Counted from the stretch's first letter, positions 21,073-58,243 are shown. The stretch: 64,000 nucleotides of DNA from a virus (IMGVR_UViG_3300020465_001196); one strand, 5' to 3'. Notes: a model not told the origin generated them from the sequence alone. Translations and numbers: made by a program.

Positions 21073-22397
21073 TGTCAGAAATTATTGCAATCGATAACGA
21101 TATACAAAATCCTTATTCATTTGAAGTAACATGGGATTTAGGTTTACGATGTAATTTTGATTGTACTTACTGTCCTTCACACAGACATAACAACACATCA
21201 CCTCATGCAAGTTTAGAAACATTAATTAAAACAAGTAAGTTTGTTTTTGATTATAAAAAATTATTACAATCGTATATGACATATTCTCGTAAATGGAATA
21301 TTGGATTTACAGGAGGTGAACCAACTGCCAATCCAAACTTTTTAGCAATGTGTGAATACATACATGATCAAGGTGACCAAGATGTAGTTGTTGATGTAAC
21401 AACAAATGGAGCCATAGGAGAAAAATATTGTAAAAAATTAATTGATAATGTTGATAGTATTACTGTAAGTTATCACAGCGAAGTAGATCAAAAAACAAAA
21501 GATAGAGTTGTAGATAGAATTTATCAATTAAAAGAATCAAATATTAGACATAAAGTTAATTTAATGTTTCATGCTAAAGAAGAATACTTTAATGAATGTA
21601 TTGATTTAGTTGGAAAATTTACTAGAGATAATGTAAAGTTTGTACCAAGAATTATTGGAGAAAGTTATGATAATGACAAGTACAATCATAGATATACTCC
21701 AGAACAACATAAATGGTTTAGAGACTTTTGGGCAATTAGAAACAAAAAAGAAAACAATCAAAAGCAACCTAAAAAGATAGATGAAAATAATGATGCCGAA
21801 TATGAGTATACAGATGATCAAAAGAAAGTACAAGAAAAAAGATTAGCACAAAAGGCAAAAGATATTGCAGTAGGTGAAAGAATTAAAACCAAAGACCTAT
21901 CAAAACCTATAAAAGATTTACTACCAAAAAAACAAGAAGGTAGAAAAAGTTTAGGTAGACCTTGTTGTGGGCAAAGAACATTTTATACATTAACAGAAGA
22001 ACATTATACACAAAATAATAAAAAATTAGATACAGATAAATGGAATAAAAGTGTATTTGCTTGTTCAACAGAATATAAAGATTGGTCTTGTTTAATTAAT
22101 TGGAATTGGTTACATATTGAACAAGAATATGATAATATACTACATCATCAAACTTGTCGTGCAAATTTTGGTGGGGAACGTGGGCCTATTGGTAAGATAT
22201 CTGAAAGTGAAATAGTTTTAGAAAGATTAGAAAAACAATTAGCAACAGGTAAAATGCCTGTAATAACTTGCCCTAATAAAGTTTGCGGTTGTGGTTTATG
22301 TGTACAAAAATCAAAACATCATGATATGACAGAAGCAATGTTTAATAAAGCAGTAAAAGGTTTAACTCCTGTTATTGGAGCAAAACTAAATGGATAA
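21072..22397 (+). CDS. radical SAM enzyme with Cys-rich C-terminus
   Basis: CNFDCTYC, FTGGEP, C-terminal CPNKVCGCGLC. Confidence 0.9.
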   Translation: MSEIIAIDNDIQNPYSFEVTWDLGLRCNFDCTYCPSHRHNNTSPHASLETLIKTSKFVFDYKKLLQSYMTYSRKWNIGFTGGEPTANPNFLAMCEYIHDQGDQDVVVDVTTNGAIGEKYCKKLIDNVDSITVSYHSEVDQKTKDRVVDRIYQLKESNIRHKVNLMFHAKEEYFNECIDLVGKFTRDNVKFVPRIIGESYDNDKYNHRYTPEQHKWFRDFWAIRNKKENNQKQPKKIDENNDAEYEYTDDQKKVQEKRLAQKAKDIAVGERIKTKDLSKPIKDLLPKKQEGRKSLGRPCCGQRTFYTLTEEHYTQNNKKLDTDKWNKSVFACSTEYKDWSCLINWNWLHIEQEYDNILHHQTCRANFGGERGPIGKISESEIVLERLEKQLATGKMPVITCPNKVCGCGLCVQKSKHHDMTEAMFNKAVKGLTPVIGAKLNG

Positions 22398-23676
22398 AGA
22401 AGTAAAAAACTTTAATGAAAAGTATGGTAACACCTTCTGTATAAAACCTTTTTCAGAAGTAGCATCTACACCACTTGGTGCAATTAAGTTGTGCTGTTAC
22501 TCTGGAACAATTGATCCTAAAGAAGAATATTTCAGCAAAGATAAAACTATCAAACAAGTGTTTAACAACAACGCAGGATTGATACAAGCAAGAAAAGATT
22601 TACTTGCTGGTAAAAAAATAAAACAATGTCAAGGTTGTTGGAAAGACGAAGAAGCTGGAAACAAATCAATGAGGATAAATCACACACAATATTACGATGA
22701 GATGGATCCAGAGTTTGTGCAACAAGCAAAACAACAAGGCAAAGCAGAAGTTAAAAGTATAGACATAAAATTTGGTAACAAATGCAATTATGCCTGCGTT
22801 ATGTGTGCACCAGACAACAGCAGTTTGTGGGGAAAAGAAATACAAAAAAATCCAATAGACGTAGATTTATATCAAGGTGGCTTTAATAATTTTGTTCAAT
22901 TAGTTGATTACCCAGAACACAAATATGATGAGCTTTTAGAAATATCTAAAAGTATTAGAAGAGTGAAAAGCACTGGTGGTGAACCAATGTTGCTAGATGG
23001 ATTCAAAGGTTACATAAAAAAAATAGTAGACAAAGGATATGCCAAATACATGAACTTTAAAACTGTAACAAATGGTACAGTTGATTGTTCTGAATTACTA
23101 CCTTACATGAATGAGTTCAAAAGGTTTGAAATGGATTGGAGTGTTGATGGCACCGGCGAAGTTTATAATTATATTAGGTGGCCTGGCAACTTTAATAGGA
23201 TGAAAAGAATACACGAAAAATTAGCATCAGAAATTATCAACAACAATTATAAAAATATTGAAATTACTATGCACCCAACTATACAAGTTTTTAATCTACA
23301 TAATATTCCTGAAATAATACAATATGCAAAAGATCTACAGGTTGTTAATTTTGTAGATTTTGGATACATTTTTGATGAGCCAAGTTATTTAAACACTGGT
23401 GTATTTCCTGATAAAATGCTAGAAGATATTATTCAAGAAAACAATAAAAAAGTTGGTAAAATAGAAACATCAAACAATTTTAATCATTCATATGATAATC
23501 TTGTGTCGACTGTACGTAGAGATCAAAAATTATTTAATAAAAAGTACAACAAAAAAGAATTGTTTGATAAAACTAAAAGAATAGCAAAATGGTTTGATAA
23601 AAGTAGGAAACTAGATATTCACAATCACATATCAACATATAAAGAGCTTGAAAATTACTATCTACACCTACAATAA
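22390..23676 (+). CDS. N-terminal twitch-domain radical SAM enzyme
   Basis: FCIKPF...CC...CQGCW then CNYACVMC, TGGEP. Confidence 0.9.
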   Translation: MDKEVKNFNEKYGNTFCIKPFSEVASTPLGAIKLCCYSGTIDPKEEYFSKDKTIKQVFNNNAGLIQARKDLLAGKKIKQCQGCWKDEEAGNKSMRINHTQYYDEMDPEFVQQAKQQGKAEVKSIDIKFGNKCNYACVMCAPDNSSLWGKEIQKNPIDVDLYQGGFNNFVQLVDYPEHKYDELLEISKSIRRVKSTGGEPMLLDGFKGYIKKIVDKGYAKYMNFKTVTNGTVDCSELLPYMNEFKRFEMDWSVDGTGEVYNYIRWPGNFNRMKRIHEKLASEIINNNYKNIEITMHPTIQVFNLHNIPEIIQYAKDLQVVNFVDFGYIFDEPSYLNTGVFPDKMLEDIIQENNKKVGKIETSNNFNHSYDNLVSTVRRDQKLFNKKYNKKELFDKTKRIAKWFDKSRKLDIHNHISTYKELENYYLHLQ

Positions 23677-23973: not shown

Positions 23974-24047
23974 TGGTAGCACTACCGGGAATTGAACCTG
24001 GGTCTTAACCTCCTGAAAGTTACGTTCTACCATTGAACTATAGTGCA
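23974..24047 (-). tRNA. atypical tRNA, anticodon CAG (Leu codon) on a short-variable-arm body, CCA encoded
   Basis: TGCACTA TA GTTC-AATGGTA-GAAC G TAACT-TTCAGGA-GGTTA AGAC CCAGG-TTCAATT-CCCGG TAGTGCT A CCA. Confidence 0.8.
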
Positions 24048-24493: not shown

Positions 24494-27400
24494 TTAAGTT
24501 AATGCTTTGTATTCAACAGTAACTATACCAGCACCACCTGTTGGAGTTGACGCCGCACCACCTGACTGTAAGTAAGCCATTGTGAATGTAGCACCACCTG
24601 CCGTAGCAGTTGCAAATGGAACATCAATTACGTATGTACCTGCTGTTTTAATATCAGCGTCAGCATTAGCTACGAAAGTAGTAGTACCGTCTGATAAAGT
24701 AACGTGATCAATTGAACCACCTGAGAAAGCAGTAGTTACGTGAACAGTCACTTTAGCAACATAGTAAGTTGTTGAACCTGCATTTGGCATAGAACCAATT
24801 GTAGTAGTTGTAGCACCTGAGGCGATCGCAGTTCTAATAGTTAGATCGTCTGTAGTAGTTACAACGTTAGCATTTACCCATGCTTTTGTAACAAGAGTAT
24901 CATCAGTAATAGTTAATGACTCATAGTTAGCTGGAACGTTAACAACACCATTACCTTTTGGAGAAAGTAATAAGTCGATGTGTGAATCACCACCTGTAGT
25001 TGAGATCGCTGGAGCATTTGAAGTAGCCGCGTTCGTGATTGTAACTTCGTTTACAGCTGAAGCTGTTCTTTCGAAAATTGCAATCTCGTTGTTAGAAGAA
25101 TCGTTAATTTTAACTTTACCTTCTGCAGAACCACCTGTACCACCTCTGATGATTACATCACCTGAAGCATTACCACCAGTACCGTTACCACCTTTGATAA
25201 CCGCATCACCAGCCGCGCCACTGTTAGCCGCACCACCAGATACTGTTAAGTCCATATTATCGTCACCCATTACAAGTGAGTTACCACCTGCCGCTTCAGA
25301 GATAACAACAACACCATCGCCTTGTCCTTTAAGAACTAAATCGATATCTGCTGAGTTGTCATCTGGATCTGTTGCAGTAAGAGTTACGTTAGAAGCCGTG
25401 TTAGTCATTACTAACTTGATGTTATCAGTTAATGTACCTGATACTTCAATAGCTGATTTACCAGCCGCGTCTCTAAGAGCTGATACATAGTCATATTGGT
25501 TAGCTGAACCAGTAGATCTTAAGTATTTGTTTACTGTTCCAACTGCCGCTAAACCTGTACCACCATTGCCTACTGGTAGTGTACCAGTAACATCAGCAGT
25601 CAAGTCAGCTTGTGCATATTGTAATGTACCGCCTGAAGATACTTTAAGAACAGTTGAGTTAGAACCTTTTGCTAATTCAGATACTGTACCGTCACCATCA
25701 GTTGTGATGATTGAACTTGCCGCGAAAGCAGAAACGTTTGTACCTAAACCACCATTAGCCGCCGCAACAGTACCAGATAAATCTGATGCCGATAAAGCAG
25801 AAGCTGAGAAGTTAGTTCCGTCTGATCTTAAGTATTGACCTGTTGAACCTACAGCGATTTCGCCACCGTCTGCTTCAACAAGTGAGTTGTTACCATGACC
25901 TGAGATAGATGCACCGAAGCCACCATATGCTCTGCCGATAACTGTACCATTCCAAGTACCAGCCGCAATTGTTCCAAAACGCATAGTTGCATCTGAAACA
26001 GAAGCTTGGTTAGCCGAACCAGTTTTGAACGTGAATGAATCTGTTGAATCATCAAAGTTCATGAATGCAAATTGGTTAGTGTTTGCTGTTGATGATCTTT
26101 TGATCTCAACACCACCTGCTAAACCAGTTTCTTGCGAAGTTGCACCACTGTTTACTTGAATGTATTTGTCTTCTGAAGTTACAGTTCCAACGTCTAATGT
26201 AATAGAGTTACCTGAAACTGTTAAGTCACCTGTTACTGCTAGGTCACCAGTGATAGCCATTGAACCATCAATAGTTGCTGTTGAACCTAATGTACCAGTT
26301 GAGAAAGTAGTAACACCAGTGATTGAACCACCAGTTAGTGCTACTGAACCTGCGTCCTGAGTAGCAATTGAACCTAAGCCCAATGATGTTCTAGCAGTTG
26401 CGCCTGACTCTGCAACCCAAGTTGAACCATTACCAACGATAATGTTACCATCACCTTTAGCCAATGCCGCAATTGCGTCTAAGTCTGCATCGTATGCCTG
26501 AACGTTAGTGCCAATAGTTAAACCTAATGACGCTCTAGCAGTTGCACCAGTTTCTAACACGAAGTTAGAACCGTCACCAACGATGATACCACCGTCTGTA
26601 ACAGCCAAACCAGCAACGTCTGCCAATTGTGCATCATAAGCCTGAACATCTGAACCAATTGCTAAACCTAAGTTAGATCTAGTTGAGTTAGAGTCAGTTA
26701 ATGTGATAGCACCTGTGTCTGCCAATGTTGCGTCACCTGACATAACATTGTCAATCCAAACTGAGTTACCTGTGTCATATAATAACATAGATCCGTCAGC
26801 TGGAGTAGTTAAAGTAACATCACCCATTTCAGCCAGTGTGTTTGAAGCCGCAACAGAATCATCTACATATTTTTTAGTTGATGCATCTGTATCAGCCGTT
26901 GGAGCACCCAAGCCAGTGATTTTTGCAGAAGACATTGCCGCACCGTTGAAAGTTGGCGTGTCACCTGTACCAAGACCTAATGAAGTTCTTGCTGTGTTAC
27001 CTGATTCAGCAACAAAGTTTGAGCCATCACCAACAATGATGTTACCATCTGATGGAGTTAAGCCCGCAACGTCAGCCAATTGTGCATCGTACGCCTGTAC
27101 ATCTGAACCAATAGCCAAACCTAAGTTTGTTCTTGCGTCAGAAGCCGTAGAAGCACCTGTACCACCGTGTGCAACAGCAACGTCAGTTGCCGCCCAAGTA
27201 CCAGTTGCAATAGTACCTAGTGTAGTAATTGATGTTTGACCTGCGTAAGTAGATTTAATTTTTAAAGTATCAGAATCGATCTCTAAAGTAGAATCATCAA
27301 CGTTAACACTCAGGTTGTTACCTGATTTTGCTAAACCGTCGCCTGCTGTGATCAAACCAGCACCAGAAAACTGAGTGAAAGTCAATGCAGTTGTACCAAC

Positions 27401-27910
27401 TGTGATAGAACCGTCATTTGTTAACACCCAACCAGTGTCTGCGTTTACAGTACCTTCTTCAACGAATGAGAAAGCACCAGGAGTTACTTCTGAGTTAGCA
27501 TCGTAGTCAGTTGCTCTGTCTGGAGCGCCTGATGCCTTAACAGTATATATACCGTTTTCAGAACCGTCTGCCTGGTTTTTGATTAATATTCTGTCACCCG
27601 TAGCAAGTGACACACCGTCAATGGTATCACCATTAACGAAGTCTGAAGCAAGTGTTCCTGCCGCAGTAGTTGCCGCTCTAACTGAATCTTTAACGTCAAG
27701 ACCAGCCTTAGTAGCATCTACATATGATTTAGATGTAGCATCATTGGCATTTGATGGAGTTGAAGCAACTCTAACATTTGACAATGTTGAACCATCTGTA
27801 GTAAATTTGAAGAAAGATGATGATGAATCATAAATTAATCTACCACCACTTTTACCAAATTGTACGTCAGAACCTATACCTGCTAGACCAAAGTTTTTAA
27901 CTGTAGCCAT
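24494..27910 (-). CDS. long virion fibre/structural protein with internal repeats
   Basis: 1138 aa, Gly/Ala/Thr/Ser-rich; DATSKSYVD and GDRILIKNQ...ENGIY motifs; three ~47-aa VQAYDAQL...IIVGDGSNFV...AR.SLGL repeats. Confidence 0.8.
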   Translation of the reverse strand: MATVKNFGLAGIGSDVQFGKSGGRLIYDSSSSFFKFTTDGSTLSNVRVASTPSNANDATSKSYVDATKAGLDVKDSVRAATTAAGTLASDFVNGDTIDGVSLATGDRILIKNQADGSENGIYTVKASGAPDRATDYDANSEVTPGAFSFVEEGTVNADTGWVLTNDGSITVGTTALTFTQFSGAGLITAGDGLAKSGNNLSVNVDDSTLEIDSDTLKIKSTYAGQTSITTLGTIATGTWAATDVAVAHGGTGASTASDARTNLGLAIGSDVQAYDAQLADVAGLTPSDGNIIVGDGSNFVAESGNTARTSLGLGTGDTPTFNGAAMSSAKITGLGAPTADTDASTKKYVDDSVAASNTLAEMGDVTLTTPADGSMLLYDTGNSVWIDNVMSGDATLADTGAITLTDSNSTRSNLGLAIGSDVQAYDAQLADVAGLAVTDGGIIVGDGSNFVLETGATARASLGLTIGTNVQAYDADLDAIAALAKGDGNIIVGNGSTWVAESGATARTSLGLGSIATQDAGSVALTGGSITGVTTFSTGTLGSTATIDGSMAITGDLAVTGDLTVSGNSITLDVGTVTSEDKYIQVNSGATSQETGLAGGVEIKRSSTANTNQFAFMNFDDSTDSFTFKTGSANQASVSDATMRFGTIAAGTWNGTVIGRAYGGFGASISGHGNNSLVEADGGEIAVGSTGQYLRSDGTNFSASALSASDLSGTVAAANGGLGTNVSAFAASSIITTDGDGTVSELAKGSNSTVLKVSSGGTLQYAQADLTADVTGTLPVGNGGTGLAAVGTVNKYLRSTGSANQYDYVSALRDAAGKSAIEVSGTLTDNIKLVMTNTASNVTLTATDPDDNSADIDLVLKGQGDGVVVISEAAGGNSLVMGDDNMDLTVSGGAANSGAAGDAVIKGGNGTGGNASGDVIIRGGTGGSAEGKVKINDSSNNEIAIFERTASAVNEVTITNAATSNAPAISTTGGDSHIDLLLSPKGNGVVNVPANYESLTITDDTLVTKAWVNANVVTTTDDLTIRTAIASGATTTTIGSMPNAGSTTYYVAKVTVHVTTAFSGGSIDHVTLSDGTTTFVANADADIKTAGTYVIDVPFATATAGGATFTMAYLQSGGAASTPTGGAGIVTVEYKALT

Positions 27911-28081
27911 TATATTATCTCCCTATATAAGCTATATTCAAATTTAGTTTAATTTCGGGAGGGTCTGCCTCATTGTTATTCTATTATCCACTTTCGTTCG
28001 GAGTGGTTAGTAATATTTATAATGTAATGATGAAAATTATAGTTGTATATTAACATATAACTTAATATTTAATTCAAAAGA

Positions 28082-28106
28082 AAAGGGCTTATATTTCTAT
28101 AAGCCC
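28082..28106 (-). terminator. rho-independent terminator
   Basis: GGGCTTATAGAAATATAAGCCC followed by TTTT on minus strand. Confidence 0.75.
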
Positions 28107-28125
28107 CCTCTCAATATTTTAGTTA

Positions 28126-28386
28126 TTATGCGATTGAACCCCAGTCGATTGTATCAACTGATGCTACTGCAATACCGCCCATGTCAAAACTGTTCGTAAG
28201 CATAGTACCTTGTACACCTGCTCCGTGAACGTGTTGTGGAAAGTTAGTGTTTCCTTCAGTTAAAATACCGAAGTTAGTAAAACCATTTCCTGGATCAAAA
28301 ACTTTTCTAACATTTGATTTGATTTCAAAGTTCTTGATTTTAACATTGTTTAATGCTTTAAGGTTAAAATATCTAATGTTTGCCAT
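28126..28386 (-). CDS. small putative virion protein
   Basis: Co-transcribed with fibre gene; C-terminal DWGSI motif. Confidence 0.65.
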   Translation of the reverse strand: MANIRYFNLKALNNVKIKNFEIKSNVRKVFDPGNGFTNFGILTEGNTNFPQHVHGAGVQGTMLTNSFDMGGIAVASVDTIDWGSIA

Positions 28387-28408
28387 TGTGATTCTCCTAT
28401 CCTTTAAA

Positions 28409-29761
28409 TTACATTAAGTTAATTAATACTTCGATAACACCTGTTTCGCCATCGAAATCTTCTAATGCTTTACCAATCATGTGACCACATTTTGCTTCGC
28501 CAGCCATAGCATGACCTGCCACGTCTGAAGTGCAAAGTAAATCACCTTTTCTAACTGTACCTGCAACTTTACAAGGAACTCTTCCTGTTAAAGCCACGTA
28601 TGGGTGTGTAGCGTCACTACCTGCTTCTGAGTTCATCATGTAAGCTGGAGCTGAAGATACAACACCTGCTACTTTATGATCATAACCTGTTGAAGACATA
28701 GTAATTTCTTTGTCGCCACCGAAGATAACAACTGTACCAGCATCATATTGTGCGTCTGATTCGTATCTCTCAGCCAAATCCGCGTATTGCGCCGATGTTG
28801 CTGTAGCAGTAATAGTACCTGCCGCAAAGTTACCTGAACCATCTCTAATTACAACTTTGTTTGCTGTATTAGCCGTAGCCGCATCATTCATTGATAATGA
28901 TTGGTAGTATGTTGTACCGTCTAAAGTTAATTCCCAAACATCTGATGTTTCGTTCCATCTGAAGTCAACGTTTGCAGAAGTACCTCTGTTTACTTCGATA
29001 CCTGCGTTGTCTGATGGTGCACCAGTTTCGTTTGAGTTTAACTCAATAATGTTATCAGCTAATTTGATTGTCTCAGTATTAACTGTTGTAGTTGTTCCTG
29101 ATACTGTTAAGTCACCAGATACAATAACGTTGTTTGAAAACGTTTTGTTTCCAGCGATTGTTTGTGTACCAGTTACCATCGCATATCTGGCATCCGCATA
29201 TGATCTAGGTATAGCTGATGAATCACCAACGTTACCTGTACCAACACCAAGGATGTCATTTGAATTTAATTGTAAGTCGTTATTGAAGTCGATTTCTGAA
29301 CCTGTTGATGAAATTGCTTTTCCATCAGTAAGTTGAACGTTACCTTTAAGTGCAATTGCACCTGTAGCCGGAGTTAATTCAACATCACCTGAACCTAATG
29401 CTTTAACGATAACATTTTCGTTAGTGTCACCTGATAATGTTACATCACCAGAATCAACACCCATCGCCGCTACACCATTAATGTAAAGTGTAGAAGGACC
29501 TACGTAAATATCACCCCACATAGCAGACGATGAACCTAAGTTATAAGTTACGTTTGCTGAAGGTATTAAGTGAGCACCAATTGAAGTAGATGCTACGTTT
29601 GATAAATCGATTTTCGCTAACTCGTGTCCGCCTGCTTGTGAACCGTCATGTACGTGAACTGAATTACGTGTAGTATTGACTGTTAACTCACCTGCTAAAC
29701 CAGTAAAAGAACCGTGCTCTGTTGCTGTTCCTCTACGTCTTTGAATTGCATAACTTGCCAT
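28409..29761 (-). CDS. tail fibre protein with Mtd_N-like N-terminus and chaperone-like C-terminus
   Basis: IQRRRGT...FTGLAGELTV...VHDG..AGGHEL; C-terminal ATSAQYADLAERY...VALTGRVPCKV...IGKALE. Confidence 0.85.
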   Translation of the reverse strand: MASYAIQRRRGTATEHGSFTGLAGELTVNTTRNSVHVHDGSQAGGHELAKIDLSNVASTSIGAHLIPSANVTYNLGSSSAMWGDIYVGPSTLYINGVAAMGVDSGDVTLSGDTNENVIVKALGSGDVELTPATGAIALKGNVQLTDGKAISSTGSEIDFNNDLQLNSNDILGVGTGNVGDSSAIPRSYADARYAMVTGTQTIAGNKTFSNNVIVSGDLTVSGTTTTVNTETIKLADNIIELNSNETGAPSDNAGIEVNRGTSANVDFRWNETSDVWELTLDGTTYYQSLSMNDAATANTANKVVIRDGSGNFAAGTITATATSAQYADLAERYESDAQYDAGTVVIFGGDKEITMSSTGYDHKVAGVVSSAPAYMMNSEAGSDATHPYVALTGRVPCKVAGTVRKGDLLCTSDVAGHAMAGEAKCGHMIGKALEDFDGETGVIEVLINLM

Positions 29762-35386: not shown

Positions 35387-35463
35387 TGGCCTGCCCGGGA
35401 AGATTCGAACTTCCGACCTTCAGTTCCGCAAACTGACGCTCTATCCAACTGAGCTACGGGCAG
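35387..35463 (-). tRNA. tRNA-Arg(GCG), CCA encoded
   Basis: CTGCCCG acceptor, A20, TCAGT-TTGCGGA-ACTGA, G73. Confidence 0.92.
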
Positions 35464-35467
35464 TTGT

Positions 35468-35541: not shown

Positions 35542-35542
35542 A

Positions 35543-46122: not shown

Positions 46123-46173
46123 TAATTAATTCCTCTTTATTTCAATATATTATACAATAATTATGCTAGTTTG

Positions 46174-47505: not shown

Positions 47506-47513
47506 ACAAATAT

Positions 47514-48959: not shown

Positions 48960-50142
48960 TTGTACACCCTTCTATTTGTGGACATTGTCTCCATGGATCA
49001 ATAATTATCGACCCTTGTGGAAAATCGTACTTAGATGTATCATCTGTACCATAGGTAACTTTTGGATTGTGTGCTAATAGATAAACTGCTTTACCTAAAT
49101 CTTTAGGTGGCTGATCGCCTGTCTGCTCATCTTGGTAGTACAAAGTTCTCCCTGCTTTTTCAATGTAATGCCCAATTAGTAAACTGTAAGATCCATTAGT
49201 ATACGGTACGTGTGGCTTGTATGCTTTACCTACTATTACAATTGGTAAATTATATTGCATACATTTTTTTGCTAGGTTTTCTGCTTGTACTTCTCTTGCT
49301 CCCATAATAGCATCAAACAAATCATAACCTAATCCTAAATTATCAGCCATCCAACGAAGTGCAATATTATCACGTGGGTGACAAGCACCTCCATCACCCA
49401 TACCTGCTGTCATATACTTTGGACCCATAATACGCATATCAGAAAATGCTAGTGCTGATGTTACTACATCTACATTTATATTACCTTGCTTTTCTGCTAC
49501 GTCTTGAATCATATTAACTAAACCAATTTTTGCTGATATAAATGTGTTGTAAAATATTTTTATTGATTCACATTCATCCCAAGTACCTACTACGTACCTT
49601 GGATTGTTCTGCATTAATGGTTTGTAAAAATCTATAAGTTCTTTTGCGTCACCTGTTTTTGATCCATCTTCTGTACCAATCATAATCATTTCTGGATTTA
49701 CCATATCCCATTTTACTGATCCCATTGCAATTAAATATGGATTATAAACAAATCTTGCATTTGTAATTAAAGGTTCAAGCTCACGTCTTGTTGTACCTGG
49801 TAGTACAGTTGATATAAGAACTACTAATTGTTTTTTATTAACAAATTGATTAACTTCACTTAATATATTTTTAACTATTGTGTAATCAAAATCTTTTGGC
49901 TCTAAATGTGCTGTTGGTGTAGATCCATCATAACGTGGATCGTGTGGTGTTGGAGCCGCAATAAAAACTATGTCTTTGTCTTTTACTGCTTCTTGTATTG
50001 TTGGTTGCATTTTAAAATTCTCTGGTTGTCTAGGTTCGACGTCGAACCCTTCAACTGTATATTTTTCTGCCATAACTTCGGCACAGTCTTTACCTAGTTT
50101 ACCGCATCCTATCATTGCAATTTTTGTATCTTTTGTTTTCAT
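48925..50142 (-). CDS. UDP-glucose/GDP-mannose dehydrogenase family
   Basis: IGCGKLG Rossmann, AAPTP, STVLPGT, YNP, K..YNTF, GDGGACHPRD, GKAYK. Confidence 0.9.
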   Translation of the reverse strand: MKTKDTKIAMIGCGKLGKDCAEVMAEKYTVEGFDVEPRQPENFKMQPTIQEAVKDKDIVFIAAPTPHDPRYDGSTPTAHLEPKDFDYTIVKNILSEVNQFVNKKQLVVLISTVLPGTTRRELEPLITNARFVYNPYLIAMGSVKWDMVNPEMIMIGTEDGSKTGDAKELIDFYKPLMQNNPRYVVGTWDECESIKIFYNTFISAKIGLVNMIQDVAEKQGNINVDVVTSALAFSDMRIMGPKYMTAGMGDGGACHPRDNIALRWMADNLGLGYDLFDAIMGAREVQAENLAKKCMQYNLPIVIVGKAYKPHVPYTNGSYSLLIGHYIEKAGRTLYYQDEQTGDQPPKDLGKAVYLLAHNPKVTYGTDDTSKYDFPQGSIIIDPWRQCPQIEGCTIVEYGNTRNII

Positions 50143-51620
50143 GAGTATACCTTTATATTATGTTTTTGTTCAAATGCATCTGCGTGTGCTCTAGTATTTA
50201 CCAAAGGTTCACCTTTAATGTTTAAAGATGTATTTAAAAGCATAGGACAGCCTGTTTGATCATAAAACTTTTTAATTAAATTATAAAACCCGGGAGCTTC
50301 TTTCTGTGTTACTGTTTGTACACGTGAAGTCCCATCAGCATGAATAATTGCTGGAAATTCGTGTGGCTTTCTACATATAGCAACTGCCTGCATATAAGGA
50401 GATTCAGTAATACCACCTGGCATAGTAAAATAATCATGTACGTGTTCTTCAAGTATAGCTGGTGCAAAAGGTCTAAACTTTTGTCGTTTTTTAATATCAT
50501 TTACTCTATCTTTGATTGCACTACCTCTTGGATCTGCAAGTAATGAACGATTACCTAATGCTCTAGGACCAAACTCTGCTCTACCACTTGCTACACCAAT
50601 TATGTCTCCATTCATTAGTGCCTGACAAGCAGAATCAACAGGATAATCTCCTTCAATGTTTGTACCTAAAAAAGGACCTTTCCAATTTACTTTACTACCA
50701 TAACCTAATGCCGCGGCGCCTAACGAATTACCTGCGTCACCTGGATTAGGCATAATCCATATGTTTGGATTTTTTCTTAACAATAATGAGTTGGCTACAC
50801 AATTAAGTGCAACTCCACCCATCCATACTAAATTCTTTTTTGAACTTAATGTTTTTGCTATATTAAATAATTCTAAGATTTTCTTTTCAATAACCATTTG
50901 TATTGATGCCGCAACATCATATGAAAACTGATGGTCAAGCAACGGAATATGACACATCCATTCTTCAATACCAGCATGAACATTTTGTTTTAGTTTTAAT
51001 GGATCACGTGTATCAAAAAATTCTTTCTCAATTTTATCTGCGTAAATTGGTTTACCATATGCGGCCATACCCATTAAAATATATTCTTCTTCGTTTGGTT
51101 TTAGTCCAACCCTTTGTGTAAATGCCGAATACAATAATCCTAATGAATGTGGATACTTGTATGTTTTCAATCTTGTTAACTTACCAGGAGCAACATAATC
51201 CCAAATAGATATAGTATCAAACTCACCAATAGCATCTGCAACAATAACACAGGCAGATTCATATGGAGATGTAAATGCTCCAGCGGCCGCGTGTGATTCA
51301 TGATGACTTACATATTCTAACTTTGTTTTAAATACTGTTCTCATATACTGTGAAGGCAAATTACTCATAGAAAATGCTTCATTAAACTGTCCTGAATACA
51401 ATTGTCTACGTTTCTTTTGCCATGGTCTTTCATGCCAAATAACTTTATCTGGTTCACCATACTCTAATGCTTCATTAATAATTTCTGGACACAGGTTTGG
51501 ATCATTTTTTATTCTTGTATACCTTTCTGTGTGGGCACCAAATACTACTTCGCCATCTTTAACAACAGACAGAGCACCATCATGTCCTAATGCACATATA
51601 CCCCAAATTGTTTTACTCAT
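50139..51620 (-). CDS. O-carbamoyltransferase (NodU/CmcH/TobZ family)
   Basis: GHDG, ERYTRIK, HHESHAA, DAIGE, SLGLLY, MGMAAYG, GGVALN, GRAEFGPRALGNRS, RQKFRPFAP, LNTSLN; start refined. Confidence 0.93.
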   Translation of the reverse strand: MSKTIWGICALGHDGALSVVKDGEVVFGAHTERYTRIKNDPNLCPEIINEALEYGEPDKVIWHERPWQKKRRQLYSGQFNEAFSMSNLPSQYMRTVFKTKLEYVSHHESHAAAGAFTSPYESACVIVADAIGEFDTISIWDYVAPGKLTRLKTYKYPHSLGLLYSAFTQRVGLKPNEEEYILMGMAAYGKPIYADKIEKEFFDTRDPLKLKQNVHAGIEEWMCHIPLLDHQFSYDVAASIQMVIEKKILELFNIAKTLSSKKNLVWMGGVALNCVANSLLLRKNPNIWIMPNPGDAGNSLGAAALGYGSKVNWKGPFLGTNIEGDYPVDSACQALMNGDIIGVASGRAEFGPRALGNRSLLADPRGSAIKDRVNDIKKRQKFRPFAPAILEEHVHDYFTMPGGITESPYMQAVAICRKPHEFPAIIHADGTSRVQTVTQKEAPGFYNLIKKFYDQTGCPMLLNTSLNIKGEPLVNTRAHADAFEQKHNIKVYS

Positions 51621-52161
51621 TGTTACCTCTCGCACTTAATATCATAAATTTTATTTCTGCTTCGTTCTCAACTATCCATTTTATATTATTAATAATATTA
51701 TCATATGACAGTTTAGCACCATTGTAATCTTTATTAAATTCTGTATCAACATATCCTAATGCTAATGTTGTTATTTTACAACTTCTTTTTTCATTTTGTA
51801 AGAGTTCTGCTTGAGCATGAAGAGCCATTTTTTCTATTGGGTATTGTCTATAAACAACTTGCCAATCTGTATAAGGAACAGTATCTACTCCAATATTAAT
51901 AATGTGTTTGCCTTCTTTGTGTTGCCAAGCCTTAAACATTGTATTCAACATTTCTACTTGATGAAATCCATCATGTGCATTATTAATAAACACATCGCAA
52001 TTTAATGCTTGGTGTAATATTGATGTTCTACCATCTTGTGTTGATATATCACCAACTCCTATTGACTTACTACATCCTACAGAGTTAGGAAGAAATGCTT
52101 CATATACTGCTTTACCTATTCCTCTAGTATGTCCTGTTACTGCTATTTTTTTATTCATCAA
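51613..52161 (-). CDS. short-chain dehydrogenase/reductase
   Basis: TGHTRGIG, FINNA, IINIG, YxxxK (YPIEK). Confidence 0.85.
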   Translation of the reverse strand: MMNKKIAVTGHTRGIGKAVYEAFLPNSVGCSKSIGVGDISTQDGRTSILHQALNCDVFINNAHDGFHQVEMLNTMFKAWQHKEGKHIINIGVDTVPYTDWQVVYRQYPIEKMALHAQAELLQNEKRSCKITTLALGYVDTEFNKDYNGAKLSYDNIINNIKWIVENEAEIKFMILSARGNNE

Positions 52162-52426
52162 CTGCCTCTACGTGTATTCCTTTTACCCAATGGTACCATT
52201 CTTTTGCTTTTGCTTTTGCCTCGATGTGTAATGGATCTGTTCTCCAAGCATCAACATCTTCTTTTGTTTTCCATGAACTAATTGTAATTTCAACATCATC
52301 TTTTTCTTCTGACGTAATATTTATAAAGCCAGGTAAGGTCTCAGCTTTTTCTCTAACTCTTTTACTATAGTCATAATATTCTTCGTTAAAATTTTTTATC
52401 TTTGCAATAAAGAAAACTTTAATCAT
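52151..52426 (-). CDS. antibiotic biosynthesis monooxygenase (ABM) domain protein
   Basis: PGFI...ITISSW...AWRTDPLH..AK...W. Confidence 0.8.
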   Translation of the reverse strand: MIKVFFIAKIKNFNEEYYDYSKRVREKAETLPGFINITSEEKDDVEITISSWKTKEDVDAWRTDPLHIEAKAKAKEWYHWVKGIHVEAVDE

Positions 52427-53312
52427 TCATTACCTTTTCATATGCTCCTGTTAAGCATACTCTATTAATTCCATTTTCTCTTTTAAATCTATCCCATTGT
52501 TCATCTCTTGTTGTTGCTACCAGATATGAATCACTAGGATCAAGATCAAACTTTTTACATATTTGTTTTTGTAAACTTTCATATTGTTGTTTTTTATCAA
52601 ACACTGAACTATTCAATGTTACTTCTTTAAACACATCAATTATTGCATGATTAAAATATCCAACACCTTGTAGTTCTTCTTGTATTAGTTCTGCTTTTCT
52701 TGTGAACCTTATACCTGCTCTCAATAACCCAAGTCCCCACGGTTTAGAACAACTCCAAAATATTTCTTTTACACTTGGATATATTTTAACATGATTTACT
52801 CCAGTTGAACCTGCAAACGCCATATCTAAATATATTGGAACATTTCCCATTTCACCTACACGATCATAACGTGTATCAAAGCAACCTGATGCACTAAAAG
52901 GATTACTCATATACAAAGGTACTCCTGGCATAACGTCACCTATGGTTGTTGCAATATTAACTGGTCTTTTAACAAACGAAGAATATCTATATTCACCTTT
53001 AAATATTTGATACTCTTCTAGTTTATTACACATCCAATCAATACTTTCATGGATTCCATTTGTTGGATAAGCATAAGGTAAATCATTTGTGTCAACTAAA
53101 GGTTTTAAAAAAGTACGAACTTGGTCTTGACATACTTCCCACATCTTACGTCTTTTTACTGACGGTGTTTTATCATTTTCATTTGTGCTTTCAATGTACG
53201 ATCCATATCTTGCATCTAATTTATTTTTAATAATTTTATCAACAGGAGAATGTATTGCTTTACTAATACCAAACGTGCTATTGTCTATGCTATCTAAATT
53301 TATTGTTTCCAT
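52419..53312 (-). CDS. PLP-dependent fold-type I enzyme (aminotransferase-like)
   Basis: SNP, YLDMAF, SCSKPWGL...RAG. Confidence 0.75.
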   Translation of the reverse strand: METINLDSIDNSTFGISKAIHSPVDKIIKNKLDARYGSYIESTNENDKTPSVKRRKMWEVCQDQVRTFLKPLVDTNDLPYAYPTNGIHESIDWMCNKLEEYQIFKGEYRYSSFVKRPVNIATTIGDVMPGVPLYMSNPFSASGCFDTRYDRVGEMGNVPIYLDMAFAGSTGVNHVKIYPSVKEIFWSCSKPWGLGLLRAGIRFTRKAELIQEELQGVGYFNHAIIDVFKEVTLNSSVFDKKQQYESLQKQICKKFDLDPSDSYLVATTRDEQWDRFKRENGINRVCLTGAYEKVMND

Positions 53313-53314
53313 AA

Positions 53315-53992
53315 TTACCTTTGTTTCAATAACTTACAAACTTTTTTTACTGACTCTTCATTAACATCTACATTTACAATTAACCAATACGATGGATCAT
53401 TTGTTGTATTAAATAACGTATGAATTTTTGCAGTATCTACATAATACAATCTTCCAGTTACCCATTGTGTTGGAAGTTTGTCATCTATTATCCATACTAC
53501 TCCAGGTGTATAACAATTTTTTAATGGCATAATTAATCTAAATGTATCAAATACAACTTTGCTATTATGATGAAATTGATATTCATCAGGATGATCTCTA
53601 TGTGGTGGAAAGAAGCCTCCTGTATCAAGTCTTATAATATGAGTTCTAAACAAATGTTCTTTAAATGGATCTAAACATTTCTGTAATGATTCCCACTCGT
53701 AAACTGGTGTTGGTTTTGTAAAATCTCTTTCTGTCCATTTTGTATTATTTTCTCTATTATAATCATATACACTATCTAAATCTGGCTTACCTGATAATCC
53801 ACCATCTAAACTTGTAATACTTAATCCATGTCTTCTATAATCTTTTCTTGGATTATATTTTACATAATCAAAATTTTGTTCTGTCCATTCTATAAACTTA
53901 ACAGTATCATTCATTTTTAAATTTAATGCGTACTTTGTTCCAAGTGATGATAAATCTCTATATAAACTATTCTTATTCATTAACTTCTCCAA
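53315..53992 (-). CDS. Asp/Asn beta-hydroxylase-like oxygenase
   Basis: GFFPPHRD...IHTLFN. Confidence 0.78.
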   Translation of the reverse strand: MEKLMNKNSLYRDLSSLGTKYALNLKMNDTVKFIEWTEQNFDYVKYNPRKDYRRHGLSITSLDGGLSGKPDLDSVYDYNRENNTKWTERDFTKPTPVYEWESLQKCLDPFKEHLFRTHIIRLDTGGFFPPHRDHPDEYQFHHNSKVVFDTFRLIMPLKNCYTPGVVWIIDDKLPTQWVTGRLYYVDTAKIHTLFNTTNDPSYWLIVNVDVNEESVKKVCKLLKQR

Positions 53993-54506
53993 AAACTAAA
54001 TGTATTCTGTCTTTAGTATCACCGTTTAATGCTGTATGCATTTTTGTTGTATCAACATAATAAGCACATCCATCAGCAGGTATATGCACTACTTTTTGAT
54101 CTTTAACAAATACAAAATGAGCATGATGAGTCGTTATTAATGCCATATGATATCTTCCTGTCCAATCATAATGTGTTGAATAACAACGTTTTGGTATTAA
54201 ACGCATAAGTCTAGCTCTAACAGGTTTAAAAGGTAAATTGTTTAATACTTCTTCAAAGTATGAACCTTTAAGCTCAGGATGTATTTGATTAAAGTTATTC
54301 TCATTAACTTTATACTCCCAACCTTTATCTGTTTCTACTGCTGACTTTCCAACTCCATCATGCCAATCATTACTGCCATCTCTTACTTGTATTGCAATTT
54401 GATTTTCTTTAGGATGCCATTCTGCTTTAGACATAACAGTTTCTAAACAATCAATCATTTTATATAAATCAAAATTTGTTTCAAACTTTTTTATTAATTC
54501 ACTCAT
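53973..54506 (-). CDS. Asp/Asn beta-hydroxylase-like oxygenase
   Basis: THYD...RYHMAL...MHTALN...RIHLV. Confidence 0.8.
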   Translation of the reverse strand: MSELIKKFETNFDLYKMIDCLETVMSKAEWHPKENQIAIQVRDGSNDWHDGVGKSAVETDKGWEYKVNENNFNQIHPELKGSYFEEVLNNLPFKPVRARLMRLIPKRCYSTHYDWTGRYHMALITTHHAHFVFVKDQKVVHIPADGCAYYVDTTKMHTALNGDTKDRIHLVFGEVNE

Positions 54507-55669
54507 GTATATGTTTTATCTCCAGGCCATAATGGTAATTTAGTTCCTTCTGCTCTTTTTGGTATTTTTGAATCAGCACTTGATACACAACTTTGTGAAA
54601 TACATTTTTCTGGTTTATCAAATAGTTTAAACCCTGTTTCAATATTTCCAAGTGGTTTATCATGACAACTGTAACTTCTTTTTATACTACCATCTGGTTC
54701 CCTAATAATAATTGATCTGTATCCTGATGAACACTCCCACCCTTCAAACTTATTAAAATTAAAAGCATTAAATCTTTCTGCTTGATCCATAAAGTATGGA
54801 TTGTTTTCTTTATCTCTAAATTCAACTTGAAAATGCTGTGGAACTCCTTGTGAGTAAGTTTGCTTTTGTAATGTTCTATCATCATCTATTTTAAATGTTG
54901 CTTTTGGTCTTTCTACGTGTTTGTTTTTTTCTTCAGTAAATCCTCGTTGTGGCATACCGTTGTATAACTTTTGAAGCATTTCATCCGTATAGCCTTTAAC
55001 AACCGTTGACGCTGTTGGATCCGATTGAGGTTTGAGCGTAACGTTAATACCTCTATTGTGGAAGTATAATGATTCTTCATATAGTTCATCGAACCATTCT
55101 GGTACCATAACTTGGTTGATTGTAACTTGGACATCGTGTTCTTGTGCATAACATAATTTGTCTGCGAACTGTTCTCTTTTTTCTTGTGTGTTAACGTGTT
55201 CCCTGTGGTAAGAAGCCGTGATACTGGCTCTATGGAACGGTGCGACTGCTTGTACATATTTTTCAAACCATTTCATGTTTCTACTACAATTACTTGTCAT
55301 ATGGACAGAAGTATAATTAGTATTTGGTGTATCATCAGCGAGATGCTGTAGAATATCAATATAACCAGGATGAAATGTAGGCTCGCCGCCAGAAAGTGAG
55401 AAGTGGAAACTATTAAATCCTCTAGCTCTCGCTTGTCTTTTGATTTCATCAATGGTGGCAAGACATAACTCAGTAGGCCTATGATCTTTTCTGTCACTCC
55501 TAGCATACGGCCAACAGTAGCTACACCTATAGTTACAAAACCTACCAAGAAGCCAACTGACTGTAAAAAGATCCCGATACAACATAGTACGTTGGCCCAC
55601 ACGAACGAGATCAGGGTACGGAATTTTTGTAAAATCATACTCACTCCATTTTAAATCGTTCATTGCCAA
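54503..55669 (-). CDS. radical SAM enzyme, same class as 21072-22397
   Basis: WLLGRFCNYRCSYC, LSGGEP, C-terminal Cys cluster. Confidence 0.9.
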   Translation of the reverse strand: MAMNDLKWSEYDFTKIPYPDLVRVGQRTMLYRDLFTVSWLLGRFCNYRCSYCWPYARSDRKDHRPTELCLATIDEIKRQARARGFNSFHFSLSGGEPTFHPGYIDILQHLADDTPNTNYTSVHMTSNCSRNMKWFEKYVQAVAPFHRASITASYHREHVNTQEKREQFADKLCYAQEHDVQVTINQVMVPEWFDELYEESLYFHNRGINVTLKPQSDPTASTVVKGYTDEMLQKLYNGMPQRGFTEEKNKHVERPKATFKIDDDRTLQKQTYSQGVPQHFQVEFRDKENNPYFMDQAERFNAFNFNKFEGWECSSGYRSIIIREPDGSIKRSYSCHDKPLGNIETGFKLFDKPEKCISQSCVSSADSKIPKRAEGTKLPLWPGDKTYT

Positions 55670-56880
55670 AACTCCTTAAACTCCGGATACACTTCTAAAA
55701 AATTTGTTTCATTTAATCTATCCATAGTTTCAACATATTCTTTAGTTGATCGTGGCAATGTTTCATTGTTAATATTAGTATTATTCATATAATCTAATAC
55801 ATAGTTTGACCATTTAACTATTTTGGCCAAACGATTCTCCTTAATGTTTACTAACTTATCTATTTTATTATAAACTCTTTTTGTTATAATGTCTTTCATT
55901 TTCTTTGGAATATATTGAATATTTAAGGCCTCTGGATATTGAACCAAACTACAATGGAAAGGACAATCCAACGAAACGTAATAATCAATTATCTCATCAA
56001 ATCTGGAAATATTATATAGAGAAACTGTACAAGTAGTTGTTAAATTAAACTGATCGGCCGATAATTCAGATTTTAATGTTCTAATATTATTTTCAATTGC
56101 TTCTAAATTACTTCCTGTTCTTAAATAACCATGAATCTTTTTATCACCATCTATACTAACTCTGCAATTTACTTTTTTAAAGTTTGCCCAAAGATCACTT
56201 ACGTGTTTATCTTTTAATATAATATTATTTAGATTAGTATTATACTCTAATGTAATGTTATGTGCATATGGTAACAACCTTTCCAATGCATCATAATGCT
56301 GTGGTTGTATTAAAGGTTCGCCACCTGCTATAACTATTTCTTCTACTCTTGGTCCTATGTCATTTACTACTTGATTAAATGTTTCTATAGGTAATTTTGC
56401 AATACCTCTCCATGTACTTGTTTCTGTTAATTGATATTTGTCAAATAAACGTTTTACATCATCATGCTTGTTTACTGCTACTGCCCAAGTTGAACTATAT
56501 ATTGATGAGCAATGTCTACATCTTAAATCGCATACATTACCAAAACGCAATTCAATTGATTTTACATTCATTGGTAGTGTGCCATCAACAACCTCTTCCA
56601 TCACTTGTGGAATATATGAAGCATAGTCTTCATTACATTGTTGCCTAGTTGATGTTATGTTTGCTTTTTCCATATCCCAACAGCTCTTACAACCTTCATG
56701 CTCAATATTGTTCATTAAATTTTTACGTATATTTTTATAGTTTTCATTGTTCCAAATTTCTTTAAGAGTCTTATCACCATAATGTCCTAGTGAATCGTGG
56801 TTTCGCCAACAAGCACTAACAAAACCTTTTGGTTTTAAATTCATATGTATGAACGGCATTATACAAAATGTTTTACTCAT
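55660..56880 (-). CDS. N-terminal twitch-domain radical SAM enzyme
   Basis: FCIMPF...ACW...CKSCW; CDLRCRHC; AGGEP. Confidence 0.9.
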   Translation of the reverse strand: MSKTFCIMPFIHMNLKPKGFVSACWRNHDSLGHYGDKTLKEIWNNENYKNIRKNLMNNIEHEGCKSCWDMEKANITSTRQQCNEDYASYIPQVMEEVVDGTLPMNVKSIELRFGNVCDLRCRHCSSIYSSTWAVAVNKHDDVKRLFDKYQLTETSTWRGIAKLPIETFNQVVNDIGPRVEEIVIAGGEPLIQPQHYDALERLLPYAHNITLEYNTNLNNIILKDKHVSDLWANFKKVNCRVSIDGDKKIHGYLRTGSNLEAIENNIRTLKSELSADQFNLTTTCTVSLYNISRFDEIIDYYVSLDCPFHCSLVQYPEALNIQYIPKKMKDIITKRVYNKIDKLVNIKENRLAKIVKWSNYVLDYMNNTNINNETLPRSTKEYVETMDRLNETNFLEVYPEFKEFWQ

Positions 56881-58243
56881 TAATAACCTCAGTTAACTTT
56901 GGAAATACTTCTTGCCAATTTTCTTTTCTTATTTTATCAAAAAATTCTGCTTTAACTTTAAAAAGGTCAGTACAATCTGGACCTTTACCTTTAAGTGTTT
57001 TTTCTAAAGCGGTATACCACTTATTAATTGCGTAATCTCTAACAAACGATTTGTCGCTATATCCAATGGATTCTAATTCTTTATCTACTTCTTCTCTTTG
57101 TATTTTGAGATCATCTATCATTTTAAGTTTTACTTTATTATTTAGATTTGATAAACATAGATAATCTGGACCAGAAACGTGAGTTACTTGCAGAAAATCA
57201 CCATACTGATGCTCTTCATTTCCATCTATGGTATATCCAGTTATATATTTGTTTACTAACTTTTTATCAAAATGAGTATACACCCAAACTATAAATTTTT
57301 TAAATGATAAAACATTAAATACACTTATAGTATGGCTTATAGCAACGAAAATGTTTTTATAATCTAACGATAATTTTTCCCAGTGTTTAGAAACTTTTAA
57401 TACAGTTTTCCAATTTGATTTCTTTCGTATAAATTCTGCTTCTTGTTCTATACCATCTAAACTTAAATTGATATATACTCTTTTAAATTTTGGAAGTATT
57501 GACCAATATTTTTCTTTTGGAAAAAAACTACAATTAGTAAACACATCTAATACTATGTTTTTTGCAAGATCCCACTTAACTAAATTATCTAAAAATCCAA
57601 GAAATGCATCAGTTAAAAATGGTTCACCACCTGTAACTTTAACTTCAAGTAAATGCTTAACAGTATCATATTCCATATCTTTAATATATTCATTTGTTGT
57701 TATGTTTCTCTTATGATCAGTATACCAATTATGCTTGGGATGTGGCTCACCAAAAAAATGTTGTTGTGCTTCTGTATTATCTATTAAATCTTCATCCCAA
57801 CTTGTTGATAACCCTGGACCACAAGTTCTACATTTTAAATTACAAAATCTACCAGTTTCTATTTCTAAATATTCAAGCCTAGGTTTAGCAATATTTCCCC
57901 ACTCTCCTTTTGGACCTCTTACTCCTTGAGCCCATTTAGGATTTTGTATTGCGGCAATGGCATTTTCTCTCATGCTTCTATTTCCATTAGCTTCTTGCCA
58001 ATAGCATTTAGTACACCCAGCAACTTTCTCACCACTTAACATTTTTCTTCGTACATTTGACCAAGACTCATTAAAGTCAGATACGTTGTTTATGCTAATC
58101 ATTCCTTCGTCATCTAAATCTTTATCAAGATATGCTCGATTGTCCCAACGACAACAAGGCTGTATCCATTCTCCTTTTGGCTCAATAATTGCTCCTTTAA
58201 AAGGAAATGGGCAAAATGTTTTATTCTTTTTTAAATCAATCAT
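56873..58243 (-). CDS. N-terminal twitch-domain radical SAM enzyme
   Basis: FCPFPF...PCC...CTKCY; CNLKCRTC; TGGEP. Confidence 0.9.
   Translation of the reverse strand: MIDLKKNKTFCPFPFKGAIIEPKGEWIQPCCRWDNRAYLDKDLDDEGMISINNVSDFNESWSNVRRKMLSGEKVAGCTKCYWQEANGNRSMRENAIAAIQNPKWAQGVRGPKGEWGNIAKPRLEYLEIETGRFCNLKCRTCGPGLSTSWDEDLIDNTEAQQHFFGEPHPKHNWYTDHKRNITTNEYIKDMEYDTVKHLLEVKVTGGEPFLTDAFLGFLDNLVKWDLAKNIVLDVFTNCSFFPKEKYWSILPKFKRVYINLSLDGIEQEAEFIRKKSNWKTVLKVSKHWEKLSLDYKNIFVAISHTISVFNVLSFKKFIVWVYTHFDKKLVNKYITGYTIDGNEEHQYGDFLQVTHVSGPDYLCLSNLNNKVKLKMIDDLKIQREEVDKELESIGYSDKSFVRDYAINKWYTALEKTLKGKGPDCTDLFKVKAEFFDKIRKENWQEVFPKLTEVINE

Follow-up and report, generated by a model that had tools for sequence, protein, structure and literature searches.

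Divergent N_Twi_rSAM radical SAM paralogues of a marine T4-like jumbo phage: exchangeable gene cassettes in a context that suggests sugar tailoring

Introduction

Seven divergent copies of one radical S-adenosylmethionine (SAM) enzyme family, N_Twi_rSAM, lie within a 64,000-nucleotide stretch of viral DNA, IMGVR_UViG_3300020465_001196 (hereafter the window, meaning the whole stretch at its full length). All seven genes are intact members of this catalogued family, and comparison with close relatives of the virus reveals that such genes are replaced whole inside a conserved genomic scaffold. The genes that accompany them, in this phage, in distant viruses and on bacterial chromosomes, point to carbohydrates: we put at roughly one half the probability that each paralogue carries out one radical step on a different sugar, nucleotide-sugar or glycan position within a phage sugar-tailoring pathway.

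The literature that we searched describes no function for N_Twi_rSAM or its NCBIfam model NF033640, in agreement with an earlier note on this DNA, and it holds nothing relevant on twitch-domain radical SAM enzymes acting on nucleotide sugars. An accumulation of radical SAM genes in a phage of the same kind has been reported: a marine T4-like environmental viral genome carries 12 of them together with genes for Fe-S assembly (Nishimura et al. 2017, PMC5332604). There as here, many radical SAM genes are paired with Fe-S supply and glutaredoxin; that study counted superfamily genes only, with no family assignment, context analysis or cassette turnover (PMC5332604). New in the present analysis are the copy number in a complete genome, a large bacterial reservoir, a partner with a GT-B fold, a conserved radical SAM partner that lacks the twitch module, and cassette replacement. 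To the catalogue entry NF033640 it adds seven copies in one window, their behaviour as exchangeable cassettes, and their setting in a T4-like jumbo phage.

Results

Seven intact members of the N_Twi_rSAM family

The curated cut-off of NF033640 is 170 bits, and the seven open reading frames (ORFs) score between 190 and 320 bits (Table 1), with matches that run end to end through the model (about positions 1-397 of 398). All other NCBIfam families score an order of magnitude lower, and none of the characterised ones accounts for these proteins. Chance is excluded, since the 14 control genomes, all from model organisms, yield no match above the cut-off. When all ORFs of the window were scanned for motifs, each of the seven showed CxxxCxxC followed by GGEP, and their alignment retains seven invariant cysteines, the GGEP motif and a few further residues. 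Numbered as in the 55660 ORF (genes are named here by their lowest coordinate), four of these cysteines, C6, C24, C64 and C67, belong to an N-terminal module, and C117, C121 and C124 form the CxxxCxxC of the core. The N-terminal segment with its cysteines precedes the core in each ORF and is 100-160 residues long. The four-Cys module, CxxxCxxC and GGEP are all features held in common with NF033640.

The earlier note had described these genes correctly: the family, the range 22390-58243 that runs from the first to the last of them, the N-terminal Cys motifs ahead of CxxxCxxC and GGEP, the strong mutual divergence (19-26% identity to the 55660 copy) and the still greater divergence of the 32153 ORF, which has the lowest score and lacks the proline after its first Cys. 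Pfam recognizes only the generic Radical_SAM domain in the seven, plus SPASM in the 55660 ORF; Radical_SAM (PF04055) exceeds its threshold in six of seven, the 47514 copy reaching 22.4 against 29.5.

A radical SAM core preceded by a BtrN-like module

The AlphaFold model of the 55660 ORF has a predicted local distance difference test score (pLDDT) of 91.7. Compared by Foldseek and VIA-align, anSME, CteB, SkfB, BlsE, DesII, viperin and MoaA tie as its closest structural matches, at Z 12-13.4. The predicted fold is a radical SAM core with an auxiliary cluster, and it allows no substrate call, because peptide-, sugar- and nucleotide-acting enzymes tie.

The top match of the core is the anaerobic sulfatase maturase anSME (PDB 4k36-4k39; Z 13.4, root-mean-square deviation (rmsd) 3.6 over 223 residues). 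The earlier note had considered that the genes might be assigned to a characterised family such as this one, together with a cognate substrate gene. The anSME model TIGR03942 gives 21.8 bits in one paralogue, against a cut-off of 349, and no match in the other six; no sulfatase occurs among the annotated neighbours in the window. Moreover, anSME has a C-terminal two-cluster SPASM domain, whereas the N_Twi alignment is without a C-terminal Cys cluster. BlsE, a cytosylglucuronate decarboxylase, matches with Z 13.3, tied with unrelated families. Its substrate is a glucuronate derivative, and here a sugar 6-dehydrogenase abuts paralogues 4 and 5; its model TIGR04466, however, matches the 46174 ORF alone, and weakly, at 25 bits for a cut-off of 400. 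The paralogues also differ from BlsE and DesII in domain order, and no cytosine or TDP-sugar pathway genes are present here. The viperin model NF038283 gives 25-40 bits in five of the seven copies, for a cut-off of 180.

The N-terminal 70 residues have a more specific relative. Their closest match in sequence is the auxiliary-cluster module of BtrN (2-deoxy-scyllo-inosamine dehydrogenase, PDB 4m7s/4m7t): family profiles match its twitch region with E 1.3e-4, and C24 and the C64xxC67 pair coincide with cysteines of BtrN when the sequences are aligned pairwise. BtrN, itself a radical SAM enzyme, catalyses the oxidation of a sugar-like secondary alcohol and has an auxiliary cluster that is fully Cys-ligated. 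The likeness is confined to this module, which follows the core in BtrN and precedes it in the N_Twi paralogues; the BtrN core is not specifically related, and BtrN is absent from the best fold matches for the N_Twi core.

Fifteen copies in a complete close relative

The window is collinear, in reverse orientation, with 69-142 kb of IMGVR_UViG_3300020477_000990 (hereafter G003), a complete genome of 328,149 bp with terminal repeats that encodes a T4-type major capsid protein and a T4-type portal. G003 contains 15 N_Twi_rSAM ORFs above the cut-off, spread over five genome regions. Seven is the count in the window, and not the copy number of the phage, because this complete relative has 15. A megablast search of positions 44000-58300 against cultured phages gave no match, and the homologues returned by tblastn against them, in KVP40-like Vibrio phages and Ralstonia phage RsoM2USA, are no more than 20-25% identical.

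The window itself carries an endolysin, fibre-like proteins and four tRNAs. The tRNAs all lie inside the island that holds the paralogues: tRNA-Leu(CAG) at 23974-24047, and tRNA-Arg(GCG), tRNA-Gln(UUG) and tRNA-Met(CAU) tightly clustered at 35387-35619 on the minus strand.

Whole-gene replacement in a conserved scaffold

Between the window and G003, proteins flanking the paralogues are 85-95% identical and flanking DNA 80-90%. Six of the N_Twi slots break this pattern, their syntenic copies being only 28-58% identical, and 55660 is the one conserved slot (Table 1). At 37909 the neighbouring proteins reach 94-97%, and beside the 32153 slot the GT-B gene product is 86% identical. The 22390 copy finds its best G003 match elsewhere in that genome (44%), and the 47514 and 46174 copies both face one single G003 gene. 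The 56873 slot is hypervariable: across five close relatives its syntenic copies are 38-49% identical to paralogue 7, while the genes on either side reach 84-95%. One intergenic spacer of the window is occupied in G003 by an additional copy. Five further close relatives follow the same slot pattern; in three of them, L006-L008, the 47514/46174 slot is too narrow for a copy, judged by gene coordinates.

At the DNA level the limits of replacement lie at the gene ends. Blocks of 80-90% DNA identity break off within about 50-135 nt of where a variable gene begins or ends and are taken up again beyond it; for paralogue 7 identity breaks at both gene ends, and for the 46174 gene the similarity to G003 DNA is limited to 259 nt at 69%. 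Whole genes are replaced allelically inside a conserved scaffold. Because the paralogues behave as exchangeable cassettes in this manner, the slot function, that is to say its product, may be under diversifying selection, by analogy with surface-polysaccharide and receptor-binding loci.

N_Twi_rSAM occurs in phages and in at least one bacterial phylum

A search of 1.84 billion representatives with a profile built from the seven copies retrieved 6,942 clusters (50% identity, E <=1e-30). Fusions of two N_Twi units in tandem, about 800 residues long, are common among the profile matches (for instance at 7590-10004 of locus L070), which suggests that pairs of paralogues act together. Two peptide patterns drawn from the alignment of 55660 orthologues, and hence a comparison for the 55660 subfamily only, occur in 66 IMG/VR loci and in 2 loci of 185,579 species genomes. 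These 66 viral loci hold 467 N_Twi members, about seven per 20 kb, and clusters of four to seven recur.

The earlier note supposed that the family may be largely viral, and proposed an HMM (hidden Markov model) search with a viral/cellular classification. The search confirmed the family assignment, and the supposition holds for the relatives closest to this phage: those listed among the 100 ESM-Atlas clusters nearest to the 46174 ORF are 88-100% Viruses, mostly Uroviricota; the 55660 patterns are far more frequent in viral loci; and in the tree the nearest neighbours of all seven copies are viral. For the family as a whole it is only half right. In the phylum of a 'Bdellovibrionales' metagenome-assembled genome (MAG), 79 of 301 sampled genomes exceed the cut-off, often with at least five copies, and the contigs that bear these copies, 0.9-3.8 Mb long, are chromosomes. 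Sampling of the phylum to which an Acidimicrobiaceae MAG belongs gave one carrier in 301, namely the MAG itself. Viral and cellular copies appear to interleave in the joint tree, where 44 cellular tips need 25 label changes, compared with about 40 when labels are shuffled, its deep branches being unreliable. The family belongs to phages and to at least one bacterial phylum, and is not viral as such.

Sugar genes beside the paralogues in three settings

In the window, a sugar dehydrogenase gene and a carbamoyltransferase gene form an overlapping series with paralogue 5, and paralogue 2 is coupled to the 33313 gene (Table 1). The 33313 product was modelled with pLDDT 88.5, and its best 50 Foldseek matches are all GT-B-type sugar-nucleotide enzymes. 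VIA-align ranks first the Helicobacter pylori alpha-1,3-fucosyltransferase (Z 13.6, rmsd 4.5, 287 residues aligned), so that the protein, as modelled, is closest to GT10 fucosyltransferases and is predicted to be a glycosyltransferase. Pfam GT10 (PF00852) found no match in G003, in a search whose controls were likewise empty; the stretch 'VTEKIFKP' of the family consensus resembles the GT10 motif. Six paralogues of 33313 occur in G003, at 104379, 148670, 150244, 153587, 154665 and 196277, several of them adjoining N_Twi genes, and a 39%-identical cellular homologue lies on a bacterial chromosome between GT9, GT2 and a sugar dehydrogenase, in an LPS-like cluster. The 33313 family looks like an unannotated glycosyltransferase family. 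For ten unannotated neighbours of other N_Twi clusters in G003, Pfam returned only a weak SGNH match.

The second setting is provided by 60 distant viral loci. Named families among their neighbour clusters include GDP-mannose 4,6-dehydratase, NAD epimerase/RmlD, DegT aminotransferase, mannose-6-phosphate isomerase, UDP-glucose/GDP-mannose dehydrogenase and cytidylyltransferase; ordinary replication genes and 2-oxoglutarate (2OG) oxygenases are present too, and no peptide-maturation family appears among these clusters. The third consists of bacterial chromosomes, where GT2 (5) and PMT_2 (3) head the list of families for the 60 genes located within 3.5 kb of the arrays, followed by QueC-like PP-loop proteins; in the Bdellovibrionales MAG, NeuB and a CMP-sugar synthase flank the array. 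Viral and bacterial neighbours alike are enriched in nucleotide-sugar enzymes and glycosyltransferases.

Other radical SAM enzymes and genes of the island

Three further radical SAM genes of the window, 21072, 54503 and 62483, lie outside N_Twi_rSAM. The 21072 and 54503 enzymes, which are without the twitch module, fall into one shared sequence cluster. The 54503 enzyme is 72-80% identical over about 40 distant viral loci, in which the adjoining N_Twi copy, the orthologue of paralogue 6, is only about 40% identical, and it has no match in cultured phages. A core recurs in viral loci, composed of a 56873-like N_Twi gene, a 55660-like N_Twi gene and then a 54503-like gene. This conserved enzyme may supply a shared intermediate, with the variable enzymes diversifying it afterwards. 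The third gene, 62483, encodes a B12-binding protein and runs off the end of the window; its orthologue in G003 has 593 residues.

Judged by the genes present, Fe-S assembly and electron supply appear to be provided by the phage itself, through SufBD-like and SufC-like proteins, a glutaredoxin and a flavoprotein reductase (Table 1). At least nine paralogues that resemble Asp/Asn hydroxylases or 2OG-Fe(II) oxygenases, of two or three families, are interleaved with the radical SAM genes in the window. Genes that resemble those of oxygen-dependent hydroxylases thus stand side by side with genes of oxygen-labile radical SAM enzymes, a pairing of two kinds of C-H chemistry. The reductase gene adjoins a fatty-acid-desaturase-like gene, which is flanked by two mutually paralogous proteins (43191-43985 and 44702-45367, minus strand) with no assigned family, kept in close relatives only. 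The family of the QueC-like gene 20344 recurs beside bacterial arrays.

A further feature concerns expression. The T4 late-promoter core, TATAAATA, is five-fold depleted in the window (3 found for 14.9 expected), and one occurrence stands 104 nt upstream of the 1138-residue fibre gene. Counting both strands, 13 of 18 ATAAATA motifs are placed 5-120 nt upstream of a start on the same strand (e.g. 28014, 34712, 39240, 44742 and 58299). The starts concerned include that of the large fibre gene and those of the units of paralogues 1, 2, 3, 4 and 7. This placement resembles a T4-type late promoter signal and hints at late expression together with virion genes.

Table 1. Genes of the paralogue island and its surroundings, by position in the window
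Feature	Position	Strand	Identity to G003	Evidence and remarks
N_Twi_rSAM paralogue 1, 428 aa	22390-23676	+	34% (same slot)	NF033640 268 bits; last gene of the unit 20344, 21072, 22390
N_Twi_rSAM paralogue 2, 386 aa	32153-33313	-	<30% (same slot)	NF033640 190 bits; start overlaps stop of GT-B gene by 1 base
N_Twi_rSAM paralogue 3, 437 aa	37909-39222	-	58% (same slot)	NF033640 300 bits; ATAAATA 18 nt upstream
N_Twi_rSAM paralogue 4, 443 aa	46174-47505	-	36%	NF033640 320 bits; sister of paralogue 5 in trees
N_Twi_rSAM paralogue 5, 481 aa	47514-48959	-	41%	NF033640 259 bits; 35-nt overlap with 3' end of sugar dehydrogenase gene
N_Twi_rSAM paralogue 6, 406 aa	55660-56880	-	92% (same slot)	NF033640 320 bits; Pfam SPASM at residues 6-68
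N_Twi_rSAM paralogue 7, 456 aa	56873-58243	-	49% (same slot)	NF033640 255 bits
Predicted glycosyltransferase, GT-B fold, 458 aa	33313-34689	-	86%	No Pfam match; predicted structure
UDP-glucose/GDP-mannose dehydrogenase	48925-50142	-	93%	Pfam PF00984, PF03721; overlaps paralogue 5
NodU/CmcH-type carbamoyltransferase	50139-51635	-		Pfam Carbam_trans_N and Carbam_trans_C, E 6e-55; overlaps dehydrogenase gene
Radical SAM without twitch module, 388 aa	54503-55669	-		Pfam Radical_SAM only; NF033640 39 bits; directly downstream of paralogue 6
Radical SAM without twitch module, 441 aa	21072-22397	+	85%	Pfam Radical_SAM; directly upstream of paralogue 1
B12-binding radical SAM, KedN5-related	62483-63991	-		135 bits, far under family cut-off
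QueC-like PP-loop ATPase	20344-21072	+		Weak Pfam QueC/PP-loop; same cluster as its paralogue at 29947-30741
Two fibre-like virion genes, 1138 aa (24% Ser+Thr) and 450 aa (with Mtd_N)	24494-29761	-		PHROG tail fibre and head decoration; between paralogues 1 and 2
Glutaredoxin	42884-43216	-		Inside island
Ferredoxin-NADP reductase-like flavoprotein	45364-46122	-		Pfam FAD_binding_6, NAD_binding_1; possible electron supply
SufBD-like and SufC-like (ABC ATPase)	60460-61708	-		SUFBD_core E 2e-34; ABC_tran E 5e-24; likely Fe-S cluster supply
Hydroxylase/2OG-oxygenase-like genes	18899-19507, 31593-32156, 36122-36700, 42294-42875, 53315-54506, 58373-59188, 59777-60460, 61719-62483

Discussion

Sugar tailoring is the reading that we favour, because the gene context agrees in three independent settings: the window, distant viral loci and bacterial chromosomes. 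The earlier note had proposed one chemistry applied to many sites, such as sugar positions; the neighbourhoods agree with this idea, and its count of seven has turned out to be a feature of the window. In the mechanism that we propose, each protein would bind two [4Fe-4S] clusters. The one held by CxxxCxxC would cleave S-adenosylmethionine to give a 5'-deoxyadenosyl radical, and the other, an auxiliary cluster ligated by the four cysteines of the BtrN-twitch-type N-terminal module, would most likely move an electron to or from the substrate radical, as does the conduit in BtrN. The radical step itself could be an oxidation, an epimerisation, a dehydration, a decarboxylation or the formation of a C-C bond. 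Partners in the pathway would be GT-B glycosyltransferases, the sugar dehydrogenase, the carbamoyltransferase, PP-loop enzymes and many 2OG oxygenases, in addition to the Fe-S and electron supply encoded by the phage. The product may serve to decorate the fibre proteins encoded nearby, or some other structure where phage and host meet.

Several observations weigh against this interpretation. Guilt by association is a weak argument, and the sampled genomes are related to one another. The fold searches tie peptide-, sugar- and nucleotide-modifying enzymes, Z 12-13.4. The hydroxylase and 2OG oxygenase genes, at least nine in number, the desaturase-like gene and the B12 radical SAM gene suit protein or lipid targets equally well, and ATAAATA is a consensus match only. 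G003 has no GT2 or GT4 glycosyltransferase among the Pfam families searched, an absence that first weakened a glycan reading, until 33313, itself without a Pfam match, showed a GT-B fold; the glycosyltransferase call for this protein, in turn, comes from a predicted structure alone.

The enzymes could instead modify residues of proteins or peptides, such as fibres, other virion proteins or an unrecognised precursor, each paralogue acting at another site, as do most SPASM/twitch maturases. Three enzymes of this type, anSME, CteB and SkfB, are among the closest solved cores; Asp/Asn beta-hydroxylase-like genes are interleaved with the paralogues; an M16 peptidase is encoded near the array in the Bdellovibrionales MAG; and the fibre genes inside the island are rich in Ser, Thr and Gly. 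However, neither the gaps nor the conserved neighbour clusters contain a conserved small ORF or a precursor: in the gaps of 36.9-42.4 kb, where a precursor peptide was sought, only ordinary small phage ORFs occur, none of them repeated or conserved together with the arrays. No peptide-recognition domain, peptidase or exporter family recurs either, and peptide-maturase HMMs score 20-40 bits where their cut-offs are 300-650. We regard protein or peptide substrates as rather unlikely.

Nucleotides or nucleic acids, as in sugar-decorated or hypermodified phage DNA or in tRNA, are clearly improbable substrates. With such targets the swapping of genes would belong to an arms race with host restriction, which the hypervariable slots do fit. 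Secondary HMM matches of the paralogues are often to viperin, MoaA and QueE, all of them nucleotide-acting; QueC-like PP-loop genes and HAD phosphatases are nearby; and the GT-B model also resembles the T4 DNA alpha-glucosyltransferase (Z 10). On the other hand, scores for nucleotide families are all far under their cut-offs, and the bacterial arrays adjoin GT2 and GT-C enzymes, not DNA-modification genes. The variant in which DNA is decorated with sugars by way of hydroxymethylcytosine is weakened because G003 is without a convincing gene of the ThyA/dCMP-hydroxymethylase family (15.5 bits, under the cut-off).

Lipid substrates, in the form of membrane or lipid A acyl chains modified together with desaturase-like and LpxO-like hydroxylase genes, are very improbable. 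In their favour, a distant 304-kb contig also has the FA_desaturase gene that here lies beside the reductase, lipid hydroxylases are found within the Asp_Arg_Hydrox family, and the tetraether synthase is weakly matched (33 bits; GDGT-MAS, Z 12.3). Among the neighbours, however, no family of acyl carriers, acyltransferases or lipid synthesis is recurrent, and most distant loci are without the desaturase-like gene.

If sugar tailoring is retained, a more daring extension can be formulated, which we hold to be speculative and on balance improbable. The N_Twi slots would be the variable 'letters' of a hypervariable sugar code built by attackers of bacteria, both jumbo phages and predatory Bdellovibrionota. 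A single cassette swap would alter one glycan position on fibres or on the surface, and hence recognition, adhesion or evasion, as a phage counterpart of O-antigen diversification.

Few gene families of marine T4-like jumbo phages are expanded as far as N_Twi_rSAM, which reaches 15 copies in one 328-kb genome. Its roughly 6,900 clusters at 50% identity, with no known reaction, make it of interest as a large and diverse enzyme family, and syntenic slots with different inserts amount to natural swap experiments. Should the sugar-tailoring reading prove true, the family would represent a large reservoir of new radical carbohydrate chemistry, and uncultured ocean phages would be building elaborate and fast-changing glycans, with a bearing on host recognition as well as on enzyme discovery.

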